A DNA stretch of 63,152 nt, filler included, from Basidiobolus ranarum (lineage: Eukaryota), in NCBI GenBank assembly GCA_040143965.1. It is 14 parts of 14 records of this genome, joined end to end, with 100 filler letters (N's around TTAATTAATTAA, not from the genome) between each part and the next. Parts side by side here need not be neighbours in the genome. Positions count along the whole stretch, not along the records: positions 40,755 to 45,163 come from JASJQH010001971.1; 13 more parts are not named here. The stretch is one strand, 5' to 3'. The notes beneath the pieces are model-generated. The model was not told where the DNA came from and did not search any database. It saw only the letters and a list, made by a program, of their open reading frames with translations. A program made the position numbers and the translations under genes. Below, piece after piece: positions 1 through 46,576 of this stretch. Numbering within the stretch: the stretch's first letter is position 1; the number at the start of each line of letters is the position of its first letter.

Positions 1-981
1 GGTATTCTGTGGACCACTCAAGGTGTGGTGATGATGTCATATCCACCAGAAGATCAGAAAGGTAGATGTGTAGGTATCTTCTGGATTCTGTTCAACTTGG
101 GCGGTGTATTGGGTGCTTTCATTCCATTCGGTCTCAACTTCCACTCTACCGCAAGCTCCGTCAGCAACAGCACCTACCTTGCCTTCCTTGTCATCATGGT
201 CATTGGAGCCTTCATCGGCCTTGTCCTACTCCCTCCTCAGAAGGTCATCCGTGATGATGGAAGCAGAGTCACTGTGAAGAAGTTCACCAACATCGGTACT
301 GAGATCCTTGATATCCTCAAGCTCTTCACCAACAAGTACATGCTCTTGCTCACACCAATGTTCATCAGCTCCAACTGGTTCTACTCTTATCAATTCGGAG
401 CTGTCAATGGAGTATTGTTCAACGTGCGTACTCGTGCCTTGAACAACGCACTCTACTGGGGATCTCAGATGCTTGGTGCTTACTCCTTGGGTGCCTTCCT
501 TGATAACCCTCGCTACAACCGCCGCACTAGAGCCATCTATGGCCTGGCCATTCTTGGAGCCTTATTCACAGCCACTTGGGGTGGAGGTCTTGCACTCCAA
601 CTTCAATACACTCGTGAGAATCATCCCAAAAACATCGACTTCATCGACCACCCAGCAGATTTCTGGCCCAAGTTCATCCTCTACATCTTCTACGGTATCG
701 GTGATGCCATGTTGCAAACCTATGCTTATTGGATTATGGGAGCCTTGTCCAATGACTCCTCTGTCCTTGCTCGCTATGCTGGTTACTACAAGGGTATTCA
801 ATCAGCCGGAGCAGCTATTGCCTGGAGAATCGATGCTGTTGAGACGGCCTTCCTCACCCAACTCATCATCAACTGGGGTCTCTTCACCATTTCACTTCCT
901 TTCACCTACTTTGTCGCACGTGATGTCAAGGAAACAAACAATGACTGTAGTCATGAAAAGGGAGAAACTGACTGCAGTTAA
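1..981 (+). CDS. UNC-93-like MFS membrane protein, 5'-truncated by contig edge
   Basis: Frame is open from base 1 (GILWTTQGVVMMSYP...). Many TM helices and motifs IFWILFNLGGVLG, SNWFYSYQF, FNVRTRALN, DAMLQTYAYWIMG, YAGYYKGIQSAG typical of fungal UNC-93-like proteins. Confidence 0.85.
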   Translation, partial: GILWTTQGVVMMSYPPEDQKGRCVGIFWILFNLGGVLGAFIPFGLNFHSTASSVSNSTYLAFLVIMVIGAFIGLVLLPPQKVIRDDGSRVTVKKFTNIGTEILDILKLFTNKYMLLLTPMFISSNWFYSYQFGAVNGVLFNVRTRALNNALYWGSQMLGAYSLGAFLDNPRYNRRTRAIYGLAILGALFTATWGGGLALQLQYTRENHPKNIDFIDHPADFWPKFILYIFYGIGDAMLQTYAYWIMGALSNDSSVLARYAGYYKGIQSAGAAIAWRIDAVETAFLTQLIINWGLFTISLPFTYFVARDVKETNNDCSHEKGETDCS

Positions 982-1598
982 CATATTACACTATTCCTCT
1001 GTTCCATAATCCTATCGATAGTAAACACTAATCATGAACTTATAATTACCTTGATATGTTAAATCAGATTGATTGATTTTAGTCACAAAGCCCTCACTTG
1101 AGCTTTGAATTATACGAATGTAACATGGCCAAAAGTAATTTGGTTGCATTAATTACGTAACAATAAATAAATATACCCTGTCTGCCTTCTTTAGTTGATT
1201 TACTTCGAACATTCCACCTTTCCCAGGATGCGCATCTAGACAGCAGAACCTACCATTGTAATTAGGTCTTATGATGAGCACACCTTTTCTTTACTGAACT
1301 GATATTCTACAGATGTTATCAATGCATCATAGAGGTTTTCTACAAATTGATGGCACTACGAATAGATAAATCCCATTCTTCCAACTAAAGTATATTCTGC
1401 ATACGGGATAAATACCCTATTGTTGTATTAATTTGTTCCTTCATTTTAGCGATTGATTACTCGGTTTTTCCATTTCGAGATGGAAAAAAATCGAACAAAT
1501 TTTGCATGACTCGGGAGATATGTGATAATAATCCACCGAAACGATTGAATGATCTCTTCTCGCAGTTTCCACTTACCACTCCACACCGTCATCACAAT

Positions 1599-2342
1599 AT
1601 GGTATGTATCTCTCTTTCGATGGATGAATCAGTATTTCACCAGATTGAATAAGGAATTAATCTCATTGAACTCGTTTAGTCTAAGAAAGCCGGAAAAGTC
1701 ACCAAAGTTCAAGAAACCGTTTCCCTCGGACCTCAAGTTCGTGAGGGAGAACTTGTTTTTGGTGTAGCCCATATCTTCGCCTCTTTCAACGATACCTTTG
1801 TCCATGTCACCGATCTAACTGGTCGTGAAACCATGGTTCGCGTTACTGGTAATTATTCTTAGAGATTTATTCTATCTCCCTTCACCATTGAAGACCCTCT
1901 ATGCTGTATGAATGACTTGCAAAGGGATTGGCCTGTATAATGACAATAGTTACGATGCTTGACCATGGTCATTTGGGAACAGTGGTGAAACACAAACTCC
2001 TATACATTTGACTATGTTACTCATTTCTTCTGTTGTGTCCACTTGTCAACTTCTATAGGTGGTATGAAAGTCAAGGCTGATCGTGATGAATCTTCACCAT
2101 ATGCCGCTATGTTGGCTGCTCAAGATGTTGCCGTCCGCTGCAAAGAACTTGGAATCACCGCTCTTCACATCAAGATTCGCGCTACCGGTGGTAACGGACC
2201 CAAGACACCTGGACCTGGTGCCCAATCCGCTCTCCGTGCTTTGGCCAGAGCTGGTATGAGAATTGGTCGTATTGAAGATGTCACCCCTATTCCTACTGAT
2301 AGCACTCGTAGAAAGGGTGGTCGTCGTGGTCGTCGTTTGTAA
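1599..2342 (+). CDS. RPS14: 40S ribosomal protein S14 (uS11); exons 1599-1601, 1680-1848, 2059-2342
   Basis: Spliced product MSKKAGK...[26 protein letters not shown]...[25 protein letters not shown]...[11 protein letters not shown]. Introns GTATGT..TAG (1602-1679) and GTAATT..TAG (1849-2058). Confidence 0.97.
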
Positions 2343-2712
2343 AACGATTTACTTGAATTATGTCAAGTTCTACGAATCATTTTCACTTGTATTTTTGTTT
2401 CGAAAAATAAACTATCTAAATGTTGAATCATTATCTACATACTTGTTTATGGCGAATGCCACGGATCTTGAAGCTTCAAGTATATAACCATCCCTTTTCA
2501 GCTAATTCATTCCCTACTTCATTTGGCCATTATTATTATACTTGATAATGTAGCTTTATTACTGGTAACTTTCAACCAATGGACGTCAAGTGTGAGATGA
2601 AAATTCTCACCCTCTGTAGTATGTGGGAATTAGAAACCGTAAAGATGGAGAAATGATGGAAATTAAGCTACGTAAGTGAGGATCGTGGGAATATTATGAA
2701 GTAAAAGGTTTT

Positions 2713-3232
2713 ATGGCATGTCATGCAGCTTTGAGAGCCATACCAAGAAACACCATGATTTACAATGGAATTATAAAAAGAGTAAACCCATTACTACTCC
2801 ATCGTCTTAAACCACGTCACTTTTCTATTACCTCTTTTACTATGGTTCAAAAACTTACCACCCAAGAACGTGAACTCCACCTTAATACTTTGAAAGCTGA
2901 AGACTGGAAGGAAGTTGAGAACCGTGACGCTATAATCAAAACTTTCCTATTCGACGATTTTAACGCTGCCTTTGGCTTTATGTCACGCGTTGCTCTTCGT
3001 GCGGATAAAGTTAACCACCACCCAGAATGGTTCAACGTAAGTATTCTATTGTTATATTTCCTAGACCTCTAAATGTTGTAAGTATTATCTCTTACTCAAC
3101 ATATTTCTTTTTGCTTTTATTATCCAGGTTTACAATAAGGTGGAGATTACCCTCTCAACTCACGATTGCCAAGGTCTCTCTATAAATGATGTGGAGCTTG
3201 CTAACTTCTGTGATTCTGTGTATCGTCCTTGA
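2713..3232 (+). CDS. PCBD: Pterin-4-alpha-carbinolamine dehydratase; exons 2713-3036, 3128-3232; start could be 2713, 2755 or 2842
   Basis: [46 protein letters not shown] signature across GTAAGT..CAG intron 3037-3127. Confidence 0.93.
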
Positions 3233-3791
3233 TTGTCCATAAATAATAAACCTATCAAACATTACAAATAATTGCCACCATATTCTATTGAGATGGTGAT
3301 CATTTTATATAGAAACTTACAATAGTCATAGTCAACACTGATCACGTTTTTGGTTGTTATATCATGAAGCCAGCAGTAAGCATTGACCCCTTCAACACCT
3401 GTTGTTTGAAGAATCGCTGCGAAAGTTGGAGTGAATAAGAGCATCCCCAGGATAGGGGGTACCTAAGGTCAGAACTTTTTTAAAAAGAGTTAAAATAAGT
3501 ACATTTGTCGAAAAATACGTGTTTTGTTGTAATTTGCGAAAAGTTACCCTAAAAAAATTGGTAGCAAAGTAAAGGTTAAAAAGTAAGCGAGGAAATAAAG
3601 GTAAAACCGTTTTTGGGGGTATACAAGAAAGTTGTAGACAACTTCAGAAAAGTAGAGGCTCTAATTAACCAAGTTATTTTCGACAAAAATAGGAATTCAT
3701 TTTAAAGATATATAAATAAGGTTAAAAATGAAGCGAGATAACGCGTTTATTTTATTTCAAACCGACAAAAGAAATCATCAAGAGGGTTAGT

Positions 3792-5063: not shown

Positions 5064-8000
5064 TGCTGATATTAGGTAAATAGCAGTTCATTATTTGATG
5101 GTTTGCTTATTACTGTTGTGCTTTGTTGGTACATAGCTTGGTCCTTCAAAATGTGAGTAAATTGCTCTAATTGATAGGAATTTTGATTTGATCACTTTTA
5201 CCAATTTTCACTATTCTCTCAACTCTTCTCTAAAACACCTGATTTAGCACTCATGTATTACAGGCATATTTGTAATGATCCAAGTGTGTCCAATAGTCAT
5301 ATGTTATAGTGAAGCATAAATAGACACTGTTAAATTCAATAAAACTTAGGCATCTGATTCACATATCCAGATCTTCTCAAAGATACTTCCAAACCTCCTA
5401 GATACTTTTGTCAGGTTATGAGCCCCAAGCTAGCTGTTGGAGCAATTTCTACCATTACTATGAGTAATGCTTCTTCATCCCCAGAGAATTGTGATGATAA
5501 AGACTTACCCCTTTGGAAGTTTCAGATGCAAATGGTGCTAGAAGACAAGGATCTTTTGGGATTAGTTCCAGGAGAAGAAACAGAGCCAAGGAGACTACCA
5601 GACGCTTTCCTTGTCTCTCACAAAAAGCAGAGGAAGGCACTCTCTACATTATGCTTACATCTCAGAGATTCTCAACTGGGATGCATACACTGAGCCAAAA
5701 TTGCCCACACTGCTTGGGAAACACTTGAGGGACATATGAGGCTAAAAGTATGTCCAATAGGCAAATCAAGTAAGCACTGATAGGGATCATTATTTTGTGC
5801 CTGCCCCATCGCTAACCACAAAGGATGACTTTGAAACATGTTACATTTAGTTCAGAAGCTTCCTGGTTTGCACAAATAACTAAGATTGATTTTCCAGCTT
5901 AATACATATCCAAATAAGGGGGTCTACTTGGGGACTACTCTGCAATAGATGTAGTTGGTAAGGGCACTTTTGTGTGCAATTTGGACCAAAATTTGGCTAA
6001 TTGCATGATATACTCTATGGAGTAAATGTAACCAAGAATCTACTCTCAGTGAGCTAAGCCACAGCTCAAGGGCTAAATTAGGTGCTAAGCACGGCTGGAT
6101 GCACTATTGCAGATCAGAAGAATACAAAACTAGCAACTGGGATCAAAACTTATACAAGCTAAAAATCAACAAATTGTAAACTTAGTATATCAAACATGGC
6201 TGACACCGGTGAAGTACACTATAAAAAATGGCATGAAGGTTGGCCACATTGTGGAACAAAAACTGACAAAAATTAATGTAAATTAGCCTGTTTCAGGCAT
6301 AGTAATTAAAAACATCATTAAATTAGATCTGTCTGAAAGTTGCATGTCTGGAAACATCATGGATAGCAATTCCCAAGTTCTGGAGATATCAATTCCTGTC
6401 AGGACTTTACCCTATTGCATTTTAACCTATGTGGGTGCATATAAGTGTCACACTAGGTGGCAAGAGATTGTATGACCTTGATTAATGTCAACCCAAGATA
6501 TATTTGGGTTTTTTGTGCAAATCAAAATATGAAGCTTTAACTATATTGGGGCACTACAGAGTAATGGCAGAAAAATAATTGGCCCAAAAAATAAGGGTAT
6601 TAAGGAATTAGATTGGTGTAGAATACTACTCACAGGATTTTGCCAGTCTTTGTTCAATATATGAAATTAAGCAACAAACTGCTGTACCTTGTGCTTCATT
6701 GTAAAATGGAGTTACAGAACATGCTAATGGACTATTGTAGAGATGGCAAGTTTATCATCACATGAGCAACCATTGAATTACAAATATTGGGCTAAATTTG
6801 TCTTCACTGCAGTCTATATCAAGAACAGATGCCCAACATGCTTGCTACAAACTTCCACTCCATCTGAACTCCTTTATGGATCAGACCAAGTGTTCATCAT
6901 CTCAGGATGTTTGGTTGCACATTGTTGGTTCAAAAATCTCTAAATTGGAATCTAGGAGCAGTAAATACATATTTATTGGTTATAATGGTGGATACAAACC
7001 CTACAGACTGTTTGATACCCAAAATTACAAGTTAATCAAGCACAGAGATGTGATTTTTGATCAAATAGCAAGCTTTGCACTTCAAAGCACAGTTCTTGAT
7101 CCAGAAAACCCAACCAGCACTGTTCAAGAAGTGCATGGCAAAGTTCCAGCTGGAACTGAGCCCAGTCAGCCAATATTTCAGCTCCAATTTCTTCAGAGAT
7201 GATTCAGGACTTATTATATCATGCTGAAAGAAAAATAAGGAGAAATCAACCAGGGAGCTGGCAGAACACTTCTATTGAAGATGTCTGTGTGTATGCAGCA
7301 CTCTGTCATAGCCACAGGTCTTGAATCAAGCTCTGAAGTGTCCAGAATTAAAAATACCAGGACAAAGCAATATCCAATGAGCTTTAGTCACTTCTGGACA
7401 ATAAAATATGGGCTTTAAATTGTCAACCTCTAGGAAGGAAACCAATAGGTTGCAAATAGATCTATAAAGCCAAACACCAAGCTGGTCAAACCATTGAAAG
7501 ATAGAATATCAAGCCTGTATCAGCATTAATGGATGCAAAGGTGGGATTAATGTGATTCTATTCAAATTTGTCCCCAAATAACTCAAATCAAACCTATGAG
7601 TTTTCTTAACAGTCTATGGTTGGCAACTCAAGGTATACAATGGGTAGAACAAGTCCAGATATCGTGTGGCAGTTGGAACTGTCCACTAATATCACAAAAT
7701 CCTAGATCTGAGCACATAACTGCATTAAAATAAATATTCAAGTATTTGAGAGGAACTGTAAATCAAGTTCTGTAATACTCTAGCACTCCTGATGCACAAA
7801 ATTTGAAGGCTACAATGATGCAGACTTTGGAATAAACCTTGATGATATAAGATCAACAACTGGGTATGCTTTTTGGTATGGTAATAGGGCTGTAGCTGGG
7901 AATAATCAGAAGCAACTAACAACAACACTTTCCATCATGGAAGCAGAGTACATGGCTGCCTCCACTACTACACACAAAGCTTTGTGATTAAGCAAGATAT

Positions 8001-8713
8001 TTACAGACTTAGTATAGTTGCAGAAATAGGCTATTACTATCTTTGAAGATAATTAAAGTTATATTAAATTGGCTAAAAACCCTTCATTTCATGCTAGAAC
8101 AATGTATGAAAATATGTGGTATCATTTCATTAGAGAATAATAGCAAATGATACAATTGAACTTGTCTATTGCTCTACTGAAGAAATGGTTGCTGACATCT
8201 TAATCAAACCTTTAGTAAAAGCACAATTTGAATTATCAGATACAAGTTACCTGTAAAGATTTTGCCTTTGTATAAGTATCTCTCTTCTTTGTCTCTTGTT
8301 AGCTCTCACACATCCTAGCCTTCTGCTTTCCTGCCCAACATATACCAAATTGACTATAGTCTTCTCAAGCAACTAACAACAACACTTTCCACCATGGAAG
8401 CAGAGTACATTGCTGCCTCCACTACGCACACAAAGCTATGTGATTAATCAAGATATTTACAGACTTCTTATACTTGAAAAAATGGGCTATTACTATCTCT
8501 GAAGATAATCAAAGTTATTTTAACTTGGCTAAAAACCCTTCATTTCATGCTAGAACAATGAATAAAAATAGTTGGTGTCATATCATTAGAGAATCAATAG
8601 CAAATGATACAATTGAACTTGTCTATTGCTCTACTGAAGAAATGGTTGCTGACATCTTAACCAAACCTGTAGTCAAAGCACAATTTGAATTATCAGATAC
8701 AAGTTACCTGTAA
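5064..8713 (+). mobile_element. Degenerate Ty1/Copia retrotransposon family A: 5' LTR 5064-5413, PBS 5414-5425, gag, integrase, RT mostly deleted, RNase H duplicated
   Basis: TG...CA LTR homologous to 27855-28204. Gag WKFQMQMVLEDKDL, integrase tail YWAKFVFTAVYIKNRCPT / KLESRSSKYIFIGY, RNase H EDNQS..LAKNPSFHART..EMVADILTK. Many stops and frameshifts. Confidence 0.9.
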
Positions 8714-9282
8714 AGATCTTGACTTTGTGTAAGTATCCCTCCTCTTTGTCACTTGTTAGCTGTGACACATCCTAGTCTTTTGCATTCTTCCCCAACATAT
8801 ACCAAATCAACCAAAGTCTTCTCATATCTGACAAATGGTGTGTGCTTCTCAACCCAAAGCTTTTTGTAATGGTGTCTCCCTGGATGTGGCCAACTCAACC
8901 AAATGATGCTTCCTTCTTAGTACGTCAAAGCCTGGAACATTAAACAGTGAGCTTTGTATTTGGTGGAATAGAATAGNNNNNNNNNNNNNNNNNNNNNNNN
9001 NNNNNNNNNNNNNNNNNNNNTTAATTAATTAANNNNNNNNNNNNNNNNNNNNNNNNNNNNNNNNNNNNNNNNNNNNCTCTGAGCTTGATTACATTGGTCA
9101 TCAGGTTAAGTATGGATATGATTCAGTATTGTCACAATATCTCAAAAGATTGATGTCTTGATTGTCACTTTGTTTAGATTAGTATTTAAGCTAAATAAAG
9201 TCTACACCATCTGGTGCTTTTCATCCCCCCTTACCCTTACCAGAACATCTATACCCTAACCCTAAGCCACAAATAATATGAT

Positions 9283-39489: not shown

Positions 39490-40646
39490 TTACATCATCC
39501 CCATAGATCCGCGTCTCTTGCGTTCATTGTATTTGGCTATGAGAAGAGCTACATCCAGTGATTGTTCATAATTCAATCTTGGATCACAGGAAGTTTGGTA
39601 GTTCTGGGACAGATGGTGGTGGTCCAACTCCATAAATCCACCTACACACTCGGTCACACTATCTCCAGTCATCTCCAAGTGTACACCATTCAAAGTACGG
39701 CCATACTCCAGATGAATGCTGAAGCTGCGGCTTATCTCTTGGATGATGTTCCTGAAATTACGCGTTTTGACGCCAGAGCTAGACTGTTCGGTGCTATAAT
39801 TCATATGAGCTATTTGAGATGATTAGAGTGGAAGGAAGTGTATATTGACTTACTTTCCGTGCATGGGATCACAAGCCCATACCACCACATGTCCTGAATC
39901 TTGAACAGCCTTGATGTGTTTGGGAAGATGCTCATCCACCTATTTCCATCACAAAGTATTAATAGTTGGCACTTATCCTATCCACAGAAGAAAACATCTC
40001 TTACAAGATTACAGCCATAACGTGTGATTAGAGTGACCTTGCCAATCTCCTTGTTTGGGTTTACGATATCTAATAGCCGCGATAATTCTTCGGGATCCAT
40101 AGATGGGCCACACTTGATCCCAATTGGATTCTCTATACCAGAAAAGTATTCCACATGTGCGCCATCGATCTGCCTTGTACGGTCACCTATCCATATAAAA
40201 TGTGCACTGGTATTGTACCATTTCATCTCACGCGTATCAGGGTCGGGTAGTTTTCTGGTTAGCGCCTCTTCATAGGGGAGGATCAGTGCTTCATGAGATG
40301 TAAATAAATCTATATTGCTAATTTGGGAAGCATCAGCCCCCACTACTTTCATATAATTCAAGGCATCTGATAGTCGATTTGCTATTGATTGATATTCCTC
40401 CCTAGTATGACTGTTTCGAAAATGTTGAAGGTCCCAGGCCAACGGATCATGGAGATCTATATAGAATTATGGTTAAATCTTCATTCCCATTAAGGAAGGA
40501 AGTGAATTTAGCTGACCTGCGAACCCAGCTAACAATACACACTGGTTAGTGAAAATTCAGAAAATATAATTGGTCCGGGTGAAGAAAACTTACAGTGTAA
40601 GATGGTTCTTATATAATTCAAACTGGCAGTCGAATGAAAATACGCT
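39490..40646 (-). CDS. Class II DAHP synthase, 5'-truncated; exons 40594-40646, 40517-40528, 40005-40456, 39854-39939, 39490-39793
   Basis: FTSHEAL, YNTSAHFIWIGDRTRQIDGAHVEY, NPIGIKCGP, WACDPMHGNT, GVHLEMTG..VTECVGG, CDPRLN. All junctions are GT-AG and in frame. Confidence 0.95.
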
Positions 40647-42233
40647 CTACAGTGNNNNNNNNNNNNNNNNNNNNNNNNNNNNNNNNNNNNNNNNNNNNTT
40701 AATTAATTAANNNNNNNNNNNNNNNNNNNNNNNNNNNNNNNNNNNNNNNNNNNNAAGCACATCTTAATATAAATTCTCGTTATGTACTAAAATGTGTGGA
40801 CATAGAGAAGTTAGGATGGTGTCATGAATACACCCATGAGCACATGGTAACACATTTGGAAACTGTGAAGAACAAAAAATGCAAAGAGAGTGAGTTTTCC
40901 ACATTTTCGTCACGAAGGAAAGGCTATCATAAATGCAACCTCTTACAATATGGTTGAGCAGCTTACCAGTTACATTCTGAGGAGATCAGGTTGCCATTTT
41001 AGCCATCAATATGTTTAAACTCATGGCTAAGATACTTGAAGTTACCTTTGATAACTCATTATGCTTACTTTCCTACTTAATCAATCAGTACTCTATTTGA
41101 ATTTTGTACATAAGTGTTATCAACATTTAGCTTATATTGCTGTTTATTGTATCGCTCCTCAGCAATCAATATCACAAACAGTTGCAATTACCAAAAGAAG
41201 TTAGATATAAGCAACAATGATTGGCCAAGGGTAAAAGCTCGACTCATTTTTCACTTTATGAGAAGTAACCATGCTACTCATCCTCTTACCCTTACTGAAG
41301 CAAACAGCATACAAATCCCCGAACTATTCTAGTATAAATACCCTCAAAAGGAGTAATAATGCTATTACTACTCAATATTGACGTAGAGGACGGTATATTC
41401 TTGAGAATGAAATATGCCAGCATTGTAGTTAATATGGATTGCATGCTGTAATGTATTTTTTTGACGTAATACTAACCAGCTAGCCCATGCTGAAGGTCAT
41501 GGCATTTGGTGCATAGTAGTGAAATTTTGGTGCATGGGTGTACTGTGGTTATTGAATGAAAAAATTGCTGACACAAGGGCAGTCAATACACTCAAAACGC
41601 TACTGTGTTGCATGGACACAACTCTCAGCTGTATGATTACCGCTAAATCAAACTCTTTACGATGCCGGGAAATGATAACGAACTTACTGTATGTATCATA
41701 CTCGGAAAGAGTTCTTTGAGTATTCTAGTAACGTGGCCGAGTCAAAGTCACCAATTTGTCGTAATACCAATGCAAATAGGATTTTATATTATGCCATGCT
41801 ACGATATAACAATATGTGGGTGACTCTGATATGTTGGTATTTTCTGGCGAGGTGAAGCGCAAACCATCCCAAGTATGACGTTTTGGGCTCAGCCAATGGT
41901 ATAATGACCAATTGGATTCCATCCAAATATGGCAAAAATATGGTAATGCAGTCCAATTACTTGTAGTATTTCGGAACGATTGGCCACTAACATAGCATCG
42001 AGTCGGAAATCTATGAATCTCAGCTTTCCTATTTACCATCAGAAATCAACAGTCATATTTATGATACGAAATGCAGCATTGATAATCACATCATCCATAT
42101 GAAACAGGCAAATTATCGTCAATTCACTTTCCAGGCTCATAATGGACCATATAAATGCCTTCAATCAACATTGGTTCCTTTATCCATTCTTTTCCGCCTC
42201 CACTTCTAGTCTACACGTGAGGATCGATTGACT

Positions 42234-42986
42234 ATGTCAAAGTTTATTGACTTCGAGAAACCATCTTTGTGGTATGCATTGGCGTCTATCTTTTTCAATC
42301 CTTTGTTTTGGAACATCATAGCACGTCAAGAATATCATAACAAAATATTGACTAAGCTGGCTGGCGGTAACCCTCGTAGAGGTTGCTATGGTTTGGCAGT
42401 TACCATTTTTTCACTTGGAATCTTTCGTGATTACCTCTATTCTCAAGCTTTAAGTGACCAGCCAGTACATCCACTTCTTCAAACTGAATTCGTTAAGCTT
42501 GTAGCAATTGGCTTATTCCTCAGTGGTAACATTCTTGTTCTCAGCTCCATGTATGCTCTTGGTGTTACTGGAACTTACTTGGGTTTGTATTATTAGTATT
42601 TGCACCGAGAGATACTCTCCTAAATTTTCGTTTCTAAATTGAATAGGTGATTATTTCGGAATTTTAATGGACCAACGCGTGACCGGCTTCCCATTCAATG
42701 TGTCTAATAACCCTATGTATCAAGGCTCAACTATGGTATTCCTGGCTTCTGCGTTGTGGTATGTTATATATTCTATTCCAAGACAAATGATTTGTTAGAT
42801 TTACAACATCTGAATAGGTATGGAACACCAGCTGGTATCGTTCTTACTGCCGTAGTATATACCAACTACAATATTGCTTTGAGATTTGAAGAGTATGTGG
42901 AATTTAAATTGTCTATGATAATCAGATACTAATTCATCAACTGATATAGGCCATTCACTGCTATGATATACTCCAAGCGCAAGTAA
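42234..42986 (+). CDS. OPI3: Phosphatidyl-N-methylethanolamine methyltransferase; exons 42234-42582, 42647-42758, 42818-42892, 42950-42986
   Basis: IFFNPLFWNIIARQEY, LSSMYALGVTGTYLGDYFGILM..RVTGFPFNV..NPMY.GST, FEEPFTAMIY. Confidence 0.95.
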
Positions 42987-43624
42987 ACTTGGTTTAACAT
43001 TTCAACACTGCAATAACTTAATAGTCCTGGTACTTGTATATTCAAAATGCTGTAGATCACGCACTATCTCTTGAGATTAGTCGACTGTCTCTTAAAAATA
43101 AACCAGTTCACTATAGCTTAGTAATGAATGAGATTTAGAATGGTTAAATCGATATTCTGACTACAGTCATATTATTCTCTGAGCAGTCAAAAGTAACACT
43201 AAGATAAAGTTGTCGATTAACGTTAGCGTTTTCAATAGTTCACTGAGGTCGTGAAGTTCGCTAACATAGAAATTATCCAATAATATTAAGCCTATCTAAA
43301 TCTAAATTGATTTGAATTATATATCGCAATCTTTAGCCAATCATCAATTAGCACGTACTTTTTGAGTAACAAAGGTCAAGGCTCGTAATAATAAGAAACC
43401 CTCCTACAGTACTGCTAATCGTCACAGTGGCTGAAAATTAGAAATGTTGAGCATACTTTCGAATAGTGTTGGAGTCATGTGATGGGAATCAGAATAGGAT
43501 GTTTTTGATACTTTACTTTCAATAAATTAACATATGTATATATCCGAAAGAAATCCTTGAGATACATAAGATATAGATTTGTTCGATTCTGGTGTGAATC
43601 TTTTACAGCCGAATGGGTGAACTA

Positions 43625-43740
43625 CAGTATTTAAACTTAAGATTGAGACGAATGGAAATGTTTTTAGACGAATGTGAATTTGATTTGAGACGAAACAATG
43701 CTAGTTTTTAGACAAATAAGGAATATTTTGTAGACAATTT
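43625..43740 (-). mobile_element. Candidate right end of the Fanzor-carrying transposon: TA|CAGT terminus plus five repeats of ~22-bp period
   Basis: Plus strand TA(43623-43624)CAGTATTT... AGAC cores in TT(G/T)AGAC(G/A)A start at 43646, 43666, 43688, 43710, 43732. Confidence 0.55.
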
Positions 43741-43749
43741 ACCTGTAAA

Positions 43750-43830
43750 AATCTAAATCTCTTCGAGAAGAGAAACCGTGTGCGAGACGGTGATGTAGTA
43801 AAAACAGTAACAAAAGTTACTGACTTCGAG
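43750..43830 (-). ncRNA. Candidate omegaRNA scaffold core (three stem-loops at the Fanzor 3' end); true boundaries unknown
   Basis: Hairpins CAGTAAC-TTTT-GTTACTG (43805-43822, overlaps the stop), ACCGT-N7-ACGGT (43775-43791), TCTCTT-CTCG-AAGAGA (43758-43773). Confidence 0.5.
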
Positions 43831-45163
43831 AAAACGCTGTTGGGCGCCTATGACCTCTGACCACGTCTTTGGAAATCTTGAAGATGTTCTTTGAAGCATA
43901 TTGACATCACGTTACCATATCATTCCGCAACTTTTACAAGCGAGAGCACTATTTAAATCAGTGATTGCTTCAGTAAGTGACATTTCATTACATGAATGGC
44001 ATGTCTATATAAGTAAAAGTTTTAGATGTATAATCGTAAAATAAAAACAGACTGTGACATCACCTTTGAAGTACAAAGTTAGTCTACAATAGCAAGTAAT
44101 AATTCACCAGAATTTTGTCTGGATTCAAGCTGACGCCAAAGTACCTCAGTGACCCCAGTTCTGAGGTCGTTGAACTTGACTGAATCTTTTCCAAACATTC
44201 CATTACCGAAAGATATGATGGGCAACTTGTCTTTATGGTGTTGAAATTGCTCTGGCTTCCAATATCTGGTGGCTCTTCTAAGAAAACACTAAAATGAAAA
44301 TAGTAATCACTTCTATGTTTCCTGGACTTACTTTGAATTTATTTGTGCTTCTTGTTTACTGCTATAGTTTGCCTGTCTTTTTCTTATTCTTTCTTTCTTT
44401 TCTTCCTATTCTTTGTGATCTGTCGCTTTGATTTATTATACTTTCTACCACCATTAACCAAAATGTTTACCATTGCTTGTCTAGCCCTTTGCACGCCTTG
44501 ATACAAATGAAAACGATTCTTGGCTATAGAATGGCGAGTGAATGCCAGTATTTTCTGAAGGTGCAGCAAAATGTAAGTGACATATTGCAAGTATGGCGAA
44601 GTGTTAGCTGTTTTTGCTGTTGGAATATTTTTAAAAATGGTGCTCATATCTTCAACACACATTATTTCCATTTCCCGCTTTGCATGCCTTTTGGAGCCTG
44701 TGTATGTATAGTACTCCACAGTAGAACATCTTCTAAGCTGGTGAGAAATATCACCATCAACATACGAGGCAGCGAATACTTGGTTTCGATTAGGATCTAT
44801 TGCAGAAAGAGAAACATTGTTCATGTTCTCGTTTTTCATAACATTTCCCAGCAGCGAAATGTCAAGATCTTGGCCAGAATAATAAGCATAGTCATCAATA
44901 TGTATTTTGACACTTTTTTGAAGGACAACATCTGCAGTGAAACCGTCAGTTCTGATCAAATTTGAAAATGCTAGTTTTCTCTTTTTGTTTGGGTCTTGTA
45001 GATCTTGAAAGCTATTATACAAGTACTTGTTAGCAAATGAGTATATGAATATACGCTCGTATACCTACCTATCTAATCTTAGTCTCTTGAAATCAAACAC
45101 CTTGTTAAACATTTCAAGTTTAGCCTCATAAGTGGTTGGCATTTTTATACCAGAAAAAGACGA
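43817..45163 (-). pseudogene. Fanzor1 (eukaryotic TnpB-family RNA-guided endonuclease), intron-containing, inactivated, 5'-truncated by contig end; introns 45012-45068, 44278-44331, 44005-44063
   Basis: IRTDGF (WED), AIDPNRNQVF (RuvC-I), RRCSTVEYY, IPTAKT, PIISFGNGMFG, IVD*LCTSK (RuvC-II), CHSC..CKSC zinc finger, W*RDVNASKNI (RuvC-III), C-terminal RPTAFSR. Confidence 0.88.
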
Positions 45164-46576
45164 NNNNNNNNNNNNNNNNNNNNNNNNNNNNNNNNNNNNN
45201 NNNNNNNTTAATTAATTAANNNNNNNNNNNNNNNNNNNNNNNNNNNNNNNNNNNNNNNNNNNNTTCTAATCCAATACAACCATTTGAAGCGACATACGAG
45301 CCACCCAATGAACGATTTGTGAGAGGCTGGGATTCCAAAAATACCGACCAAGAGTTACAAATTTGGTCAGAATTGGAACCACAACTATAACATGTGAGGG
45401 ATCTGAAAACTGAGAAAGGAATTAATTATGGTGATTATATCCTACTGTACTTCTAATCGATCCAACTCACATAGATGGATGTATTAAGCGCCTGCATATC
45501 AACGGAGATAGTTGACCTAATACGATAAAGCTTCGGAATCTGCCACAACATCAAAAATCTGACAGAGTTGCGCTGCTAGAGCACAGAGAACTAGAGCAAT
45601 AATGGTAGCAAGAGTAGGCCACATACACATCCTCGCTTCTTACAAAAGAACCCCACGAGACTGAATCCAGATGACCACTCCATGATAAAGGGAATTAAGA
45701 CTTTTTACATATATAGGCATCGCCCGGAGCTTCGGGAGTGTTGCATGGCCATTTGCTAAGATCATTAGATATCCAACCCCTGTATGGTAGTACTTGGTAG
45801 ACCTGGACATTTGGTTTTGTTGTACTCTTTCTATTCGGTCATATTATCACACTGACTCAGAACTCAATCTGCTCTAGATATATGTGGTTGACATGGAGTT
45901 GCTTTAATACAATCTAGGTTCAGCTTAATAGCATTATGCCTACAACTCAAGGCCGCAAAAGTATATGCATTTTCTCTGAAATAACTCGCTTACGGAATCG
46001 TGAAAATAGAAAGTAATACATGTGAGTTGGTAGACTAACTAAACAGATAGATTAAGAACCCATCATTTTGGGTCACTTAGTTGGGCTGATTGCTATCATA
46101 TGAATAACACAACCAGTTTAACCAGGGCGGCCTTAACCCGTGAGAAAGGCACTAATAACGTAACCAGTACTGATCGAAATAATCATGTTATTCAAATTCT
46201 CACGGCCTGACAGGCAGTGAGACTTCTCACATTGAATAGTCCAGATGTCTGAGATGCCATTTGAAGATAGCAATATCTCTACCATGTCTACTTGGCTTGA
46301 CATAGCCAGCGCTCGTAAAAAATAATGACCATGTACATCAAGGCTTGCCTAAGGTTTTAAGTGATACCACCCTAGAACCATAGCTTTGTTTAAGTTTTTC
46401 TTAGATGGCTCGTTGTGGAGTACGGGATCTCCCACCAATCAAAGCCTCTCCATGATTACCAAATGTGGAAATAAGATGGGTATCTTGGCTCCATGTGAGC
46501 TCGTTACCGTTTAGAAATTGGTTGTAGAACATTGATTTCGGCTCTCAACACATGTAACGCTAGGATATTCCAGCGA

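Follow-up and report, generated by a model that had tools for sequence, protein, structure and literature searches.

A Fanzor1 locus of Basidiobolus ranarum and a candidate omegaRNA that may be assembled by the spliceosome

The best explanation that we can offer for the 3' region of a Fanzor1 element in Basidiobolus ranarum is an omegaRNA assembled by the host spliceosome and carrying a guide taken from flanking DNA, a reading that we hold to be probable, with the splicing step itself predicted from sequence. An intron running from just past a conserved UACAG (43742) to an AG near the transposon terminus (43636) would be removed, which would bring UACAG (43747-43743) next to the element's final 11 bases (43635-43625, the predicted exon 2). 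UACAG would then pair with the terminal CUG plus the TA target-site duplication to form the closing stem of a 50-65-nt scaffold, and the next ~15 nt of flanking DNA would serve as the guide, as judged from SpuFz1-type RNAs. By analogy with the established OMEGA model, the nuclease would cut the empty site left by excision, leading to restoration by recombination, and splicing would allow the long transposase-binding ends to stay in the DNA while the guide RNA stays short. Although the system is of a known kind and the copy at this locus is dead, the design that it shows, in which a spliceosomal intron within the omegaRNA would take away the end of the transposon, seems not to have been described before. 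If correct, this reading gives a guide RNA scaffold of OMEGA or CRISPR type built by the spliceosome, the first in the literature searched, and a eukaryote-specific adaptation that would explain how Fanzors can ride in transposons whose ends far exceed the length of a guide scaffold.

The Fanzor1 gene and its transposon

The window (the whole stretch of DNA analysed, 63,152 nucleotides) is made of separate contigs of ~4.4 kb joined by linkers: runs of N recur every 4.4-4.5 kb (e.g. 40655-40754 and 45164-45263), and the linkers contain TTAATTAATTAA. Neighbours across a linker are therefore not genomic neighbours. Homologues in the organism's own genome were sought in its 65-Mb assembly. The features that define the locus are as follows.

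40755-45163: contig JASJQH010001971.1, carrying the Fanzor 3' region on the minus strand
43817-45163, minus strand: 3' part of the Fanzor1 gene, its 5' side cut by the contig end, with three predicted coding introns
43625-43671, minus strand: core of the right terminal inverted repeat (TIR), Tc1/mariner type, ~47 bp of it common to the left end in locus L074
43623-43624, minus strand: TA target-site duplication (TSD), by analogy the predicted last two bases of the scaffold

Fanzor1 was recognized by a TnpB-like RuvC D-P-N motif, a glutamate six residues before a C4 zinc finger, and an R-D motif. IDPN is present at 44800 in the window, and DEFRT, CxxC..CxxC and WQRDVN are present in the sister copy L066, which also carries the TNB domain PF07282. 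The family profile (A2) matches the solved chains of SpuFz1 (E 6e-18) and PpFz1 (E 8e-10); the 226-aa window ORF alone gave no match in PDB or Pfam. Ten close database proteins were looked up, and the seven named clusters among them are all from Mucorales. The window gene is a pseudogene. It has a frameshift near 44390, a stop replacing the RuvC-II glutamate (44081-44079), a further stop at 43914-43912 (ahead of the RD motif) and, near 43900, another frameshift, so that the part present holds two stops and two frameshifts and encodes no intact nuclease, the 5' half lying off the contig. The element copy is decayed, as the ORF shows, and probably inactive.

The genome search found five Fanzor families with right ends: A (the window copy, L002 and L003), B (L004-L006 and L008), C (L070), D (L105) and E (L112-L114 and L120). 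Family F is a single metagenome contig, L109, on which a Fanzor1 element occupies positions 71-3390. It is complete and almost intact, has a TIR at each end and shows canonical splice signals in its omegaRNA; its protein is close to one from Mucor flavus (P0097), with a possible frameshift near 1040. The metagenome scan confirmed two of 104 candidates, one of them with a 3' end; scans of viral and prokaryotic contigs confirmed none of 102 and none of 91, and a homologue search among longer proteins yielded none from 1415 candidates. Two kinds of Fanzor-less element also came to light. A short one (L008 / L077, 1835-2075), comprising a left end, an omegaRNA scaffold with a GC donor variant and a shortened right end, is a ghost locus like those of SpuFz1, and L123-L126 (C2003, C372, C882 and C226) form a family of 390-410-bp MITEs with a TIR as in family D and without the omegaRNA.

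The right end of the element lies at 43625, where AAATACTG followed by TA is common to the window copy, L002, L003, L007, L009, L012 and L013; the flanks beyond TA diverge among these copies. The left end, in L074, has the same TIR followed by a Fanzor 5' fragment. The TIRs begin with CAGT and adjoin a TA duplication, as seen at the right end in the window and the left end in L074, and both ends are present in the complete elements L140 and L109. The element in the window is a transposon of the non-autonomous Tc1/mariner type, comparable to ROr-3 in the work of Bao and Jurka (PMC3627910). The ORFs of L075, the one locus read for them, include a kinase gene and no transposase. About five 20-22-nt subterminal repeats lie between 43742 and 43636, together with most of the TIR, and the structure of the repeat region (43625-43760) is no better than chance (z +0.39). 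TACAG was considered as an inner direct repeat of the TIR and ruled out, its orientation being wrong. The bases before the left ends are ATA in four of four (families C, D and F), CTA in three of three (B) and TTA in one (A). Since such bases are also the usual target bias of Tc1 elements, we set aside any deduction of a TAM from left flanks.

Elsewhere in the window, a phospholipid methyltransferase gene (42210-42800, plus strand; weak Pfam match) lies ~800 nt away from the end of the element, the previous contig carries a gene for class II DAHP synthase (39490-40466, minus strand), and 7910-8824 holds two tandem 457-bp copies, 90% identical, the start of which we take to resemble a copia-type RNase H coding motif.

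Hairpins, linker and the end of conservation

The first-pass annotation had placed a candidate omegaRNA directly downstream of the Fanzor ORF, on the strength of three minus-strand stem-loops within 65 nt, the first of them over the stop codon. All three were found (43822-43805, 43791-43775 and 43773-43758), the first overlapping the TAA at 43819-43817, and the location of the omegaRNA at the 3' end of the Fanzor1 gene is supported: a structured RNA is kept in the interval that separates the stop codon from the right end. Its parts are listed here.

43805-43822, minus strand: hairpin 1, over the stop codon; 60% paired, partly conserved
43775-43791, minus strand: hairpin 2, 5 bp with a 7-nt loop; 94% paired
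43758-43773, minus strand: hairpin 3, 6 bp; 97% paired
43743-43757, minus strand: conserved linker ending in UACAG (43747-43743), the predicted end of exon 1 and 5' arm of the closing stem

Folding of 43756-43830, an interval picked after the hairpins had been seen, gave -18.0 kcal/mol (z -3.16), with none of 200 shuffles as stable; the opposite strand also reached z -2.50, and the value for the whole 226 nt was weak (z -1.74). The same annotation had made conservation and covariation of the hairpins a test of its proposal, which hairpins 2 and 3 pass, with compensatory changes, and hairpin 1 does not. In an alignment of ten sequences from families A-D and F (family E was left out), hairpins 2 and 3 show changes on both sides in three of 11 pairs, and a C-G pair of hairpin 2 has become U-A in two of the ten sequences; because these sequences are related, shuffle controls overstate the significance. 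Hairpin 1 is kept in part in families A and B, is absent from C, D and F, and probably lies outside the core scaffold. Hairpin 3 is longer with a UUCG loop in C and D and has a GAAA loop in F. Family E has two different hairpins and the same linker, and the RNA model (R1) finds two of the four E loci weakly. On held-out families R1 hit the expected place in L106 (E 0.04), L142 (E 0.4) and L141 (E 0.96), all weakly, and in 217 kb it found nothing beyond the expected loci. An Rfam scan of 43400-44100 returned three chance-level matches, none near the gathering score.

Across families, conservation extends along the linker up to its final UACAG and is lost no more than a few bases from the GU that comes next. 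Aligning the 3' ends of homologues, the check proposed at first pass, placed the drop at about 43738-43743, at a GT resembling a 5' splice site. A scaffold ending near here is what one of the two models put forward at first pass (model B) had called for, and that part of it stands. In this model the RNA is unspliced, the scaffold ends a few bases past CAGGUAA, and the guide is the first subterminal repeat, the same in all copies, which would direct the nuclease against related transposon ends, for instance to home into Fanzor-less elements.

43720-43734, minus strand: the fixed guide under this model, positioned by analogy to PpFz1, +/-4 nt

The model also fits the PpFz1 RNAs recovered from Saccharomyces cerevisiae (IDs 58 and 59), which end 33 and 51 nt past the GU and have nearly the same 3' parts while the proteins differ (PMC10432273). 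PpFz1 cut DNA in vitro, and the structure, as we read the text, puts the guide from about C47, since C50-C58 are unpaired when the duplex is 3 bp long (PMC11423790). A small hairpin over the donor can be drawn by eye in several families, and homology in L004 and L120 is lost 8 and 3 nt past the donor. Against this, no Fanzor-less target for the fixed guide was found in the assembly: the 18-nt candidate guide is exact only in the three family-A Fanzor copies in the own-genome search, its 15-mer has two more matches, in unrelated DNA and at about chance level, and the candidate is missing from the left end (L074) and from a MITE (L007). The local hairpin over the donor has a probability of ~0.01, and second donors, branch motifs and complementarity to the terminus would be left unexplained. 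Budding yeast splices non-consensus introns poorly, and the yeast RNA may for that reason be an artefact. We consider a fixed internal guide unlikely as the main form; since PpFz1 works in vitro with an unspliced-looking RNA, this form is biochemically possible and may coexist with a spliced one.

Putative splice signals and the predicted closing stem

Under the spliced reading, the remainder of the right end is divided as follows.

43636-43742, minus strand: predicted 107-nt spliceosomal intron, with GTAAAT (43742-43737) as its donor and, as its acceptor, an AAG whose last base is 43636
43700-43705, minus strand: branch-point-like motif, ACTAGC in the window copy and ACTAAC in L002 and L003
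43608-43622, minus strand: predicted guide, ~15 nt of flanking DNA that differs among copies; length by analogy to SpuFz1

The consensus of 5' splice sites is CAG/GUAAG (the slash marking the junction), and U2 introns have a donor close to GTAAGT, a CTRAY branch and an AG acceptor. In the window copy the conservation boundary reads AG/GTAAAT at 43742, and an AG stands 11 nt short of the end of the transposon (43636). In nine of nine right ends T-T-A-C and G-T do not vary, the sequence downstream averages 51% identity, and an AG lies 7-12 nt from the terminus in all nine, counts that overstate independence because the families are related by descent. The putative donors, GTAAAT (A), GTAAAA (B), GTAAGT (C), GTTAAT (D), GTAAAG (E) and GTATGT (F), vary within the 5' splice-site consensus; predicted coding introns in L070 and L109 likewise begin with GTAAAT. 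A branch-like ACTAAY follows 36-42 nt past the donor in A (L002 and L003), B (L005), C, E and F. The U2 motifs are clear in families C, D, E and F and in published ends and weak in the window copy: its donor is GTAAAT, its acceptor AAG where L002 has TTTAG, and its best branch motif is mutated and ~65 nt from the acceptor; its putative intron is assigned by homology.

An internal AG/GTAAG splits the interval in two in families B, D and F, at sites that differ between D and F. It is present in three of three D/F right ends and in none of four right ends of Fanzor-less MITEs or five left ends; two of the four MITE right ends have GTAAGC without a preceding AG. L109 has a second donor at the inner TIR edge with a branch-like ACTAAT, at the right end only, the branch bases differing between its right and left TIRs. 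The D/F acceptor belongs to the TIR and is also found at left ends and in Fanzor-less MITEs, the script having been anchored on that motif. The putative introns showed no depletion of AG beyond composition (19 observed vs 23.7 expected, P 0.13), nor did they with other representatives (21 vs 22.6, P 0.38), and a comparison of donor and acceptor words with 164 kb of background DNA was uninformative, TTAAG and AAAAG not being enriched.

Breakpoints seem, from the sequences, to cluster at the donor. Homology is lost at 1754 in L004 and at ~5312 of C8377 in L120, the rest of the right end was not found behind either on their contigs, and L122 and L127 start at donor positions.

UACAG is complementary to CUG plus UA, and the flanks vary immediately after TA; bringing the two arms together requires either splicing or a long loop. 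In the window copy the closing stem has a pairing probability of 0.00 unspliced; after in-silico splicing the value is 0.98 with one 5' start and 0.44 with another. Nine loci were folded with the short start, and the spliced form paired better in seven and worse in L070 and L112, a comparison that cannot separate splicing from any other deletion, since any deletion shortens the loop. The stem is weak in L109 even after splicing (0.16-0.23).

The long loop corresponds to the other first-pass model (model A), in which the RNA runs unspliced through the terminal repeat and the guide is read from the flank. Its flank guide is retained, and its 107-nt repeat array as scaffold is unlikely. Its guide start would move from 43624 to 43622, because by analogy the TA duplication would belong to the scaffold: in viral Fanzor1 RNAs and SpuFz1 the scaffold ends in the TSD and the flank guide follows (PMC10711439, PMC13565253). 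So corrected, the model has UACAG pairing with the terminal CUG and TA over 107-180 nt of looped-out repeats, with the guide from 43622. Complementarity to the terminus does not in principle need splicing, some known Fanzor omegaRNAs reach 150 nt or more, and unspliced pairing reaches 0.29-0.47 in L070 and L112; but it is 0.00 in family A, the loop is unstructured (z +0.39), its length varies (106-178 nt), all six families have GT and AG at its borders, and the junction-spanning base pairs of published families could not form. We judge a long unspliced scaffold to be quite improbable. If the scaffold boundary is instead a 5' splice site, models A and B are reconciled.

A further possibility is that the intron serves the Fanzor mRNA, as a 3' UTR intron for export or stability, or that U1 binding guides 3'-end formation, the omegaRNA being made otherwise or lost. 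The Fanzor genes of these fungi are rich in introns, and every copy examined in the own genome is broken or partial, as this would allow. The predicted intron, however, lies in the loop of a predicted stem to which the TSD contributes, the upstream hairpins 2 and 3 show compensatory change, and the near-intact L109 has the same design, and we give this possibility very little weight.

Published consensus ends, read by eye in additional file 2 of PMC3627910, served for comparison. Among the 12 Mucorales ends examined, out of 17 families named there, nine (ROr-1 to 4, PBl-1 to 3, MCi-1 and MCi-4) have a donor 85-290 nt inside the end and a near-terminal acceptor, 2-12 nt from the end in eight and 36 nt in ROr-4. 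MCi-2A, MCi-3 and MCi-5 scored negative; two of the three are without TIRs, and MCi-2A and MCi-3 have an apparent last coding intron followed by structured sequence. The same design is seen in six of seven dictyostelid Sola2 ends. Two of the seven were read first, and for the other five a prediction was set in advance; donors turned out to be present in all five and acceptors within 10 nt in four. The SPu-1 end has no donor. Under a strict rule (a GTAAGY or GTATG donor and an AG within 12 nt of the end), six of 12 Mucorales and six of seven dictyostelid ends passed, as against none of 11 ends of other Fanzor1 elements taken as controls; the lenient rule, without which the window copy would fail, also admits MDe-7 from among these controls. 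An AG close to the terminus says nothing by itself, since by eye seven of the 11 controls carry one no more than 12 nt away. Ahead of the donor, the bases follow the terminus of each superfamily and remain complementary to it (by eye), and a stem runs across the junction in ROr-2 (11 bp), ROr-4 (8 bp), DFa-1, DFa-2, DFa-3 and L109 (by eye). An internal AG/GT occurs in ROr-1 and PBl-2, and ROr-2 has two introns with an exon between them. A search of the additional file for CAGGTAA hit unrelated places only. PPa-6 has a strong donor and a branch motif with no AG before the element end; the flank might supply its acceptor, in which case splicing would depend on where the element has inserted.

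A search for an empty paralogous site matching the flank guide gave matches with two mismatches only, eight besides the locus itself vs six for a control. Extending the spliced reading beyond B. ranarum, we lean towards the view that long-TIR Fanzor1 systems of Mucorales and dictyostelids (Tc1/mariner, MuDR and Sola2) use the host spliceosome to make their guide RNA, at times by way of a pair of adjoining introns. Splicing may serve as a switch, spliced RNA having a flank guide for restorative homing and unspliced RNA being loadable with a fixed guide, as with PpFz1 in yeast, and gain of a donor a little inside the end may let a Fanzor pass to an unrelated transposon superfamily. If this is right, the rule could be used to predict native omegaRNAs of compact form for many Fanzors of fungi and amoebae, and intron-containing omegaRNAs may account for failed or weak Fanzor screens in yeast.

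Comparison with known systems

In the full-text literature searched, which held few subscription journals, we found no description of a spliced Fanzor omegaRNA, and the excerpts of PMC11423790, PMC10432273, PMC13565253, PMC10530073 (Jiang 2023) and PMC10711439 make no mention of an intron in one. The closest published RNA is that of PpFz1, a Mucorales Fanzor1 from Parasitella parasitica, which shares with the window family a stem-loop, a 12-15-nt linker and CAGGUAA (PMC11423790); Table S3 of Xu et al. 2024 gives it as a 7-bp stem, a short linker and CAGGUAAG (PMC11423790). The window family has one additional conserved hairpin and different loop sequences. The PpFz1 RNA is a contiguous 71-89-nt molecule from heterologous yeast, with no intron mentioned in the excerpts (PMC11423790, PMC10432273), whereas we read CAGGUAA as a donor. 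PpFz1 loaded and used this unspliced-looking RNA, in yeast and in vitro (PMC11423790). The published RNA has the look of an unspliced product of the yeast host, and if splicing is the native route, the PpFz1 RNA, TAM and structures derive from an unspliced, non-native guide. Cyclophilins are components of the spliceosome. PpFz1 binds a cyclophilin that also touches the omegaRNA (PMC11423790), and a connection to the loading of spliced RNA is speculation.

SpuFz1 of Spizellomyces punctatus likewise belongs to a non-autonomous, TA-flanked TIR element, its scaffold has the terminus and TA at its end (PMC13565253), and it resembles the proposed RNA in its 14-15-nt guide from the flank and in having no pseudoknot. 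It differs in that its 30-nt TIR lies wholly within a contiguous 75-nt scaffold, whereas the TIR and repeats of the window element span 118 nt and are predicted to be mostly spliced out. The elements of Bao and Jurka 2013, ROr-1/2/3, PBl-1/2 and MCi-1 (Mariner-type), ROr-4, PBl-3 as well as MCi-4 (MuDR), and DFa and PPa (Sola2), are of the same kind and show the same donor-acceptor design, and the subterminal repeats of ROr-3 and PBl-2 are similar to those of the window element (PMC3627910). In the excerpts these elements are described without an RNA, and the Results note no intron at the 3' end (PMC3627910).

IStrons, which combine a group I intron with TnpB, offer a parallel in that one transcript of the transposon end serves both splicing and the omegaRNA (bioRxiv 10.1101/2023.11.20.567912; PMC13565253). 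There, however, a self-splicing intron takes out the element in its entirety, and splicing rules out a function as omegaRNA (PMC13565253), whereas here a spliceosomal intron within the omegaRNA would create the guide RNA.
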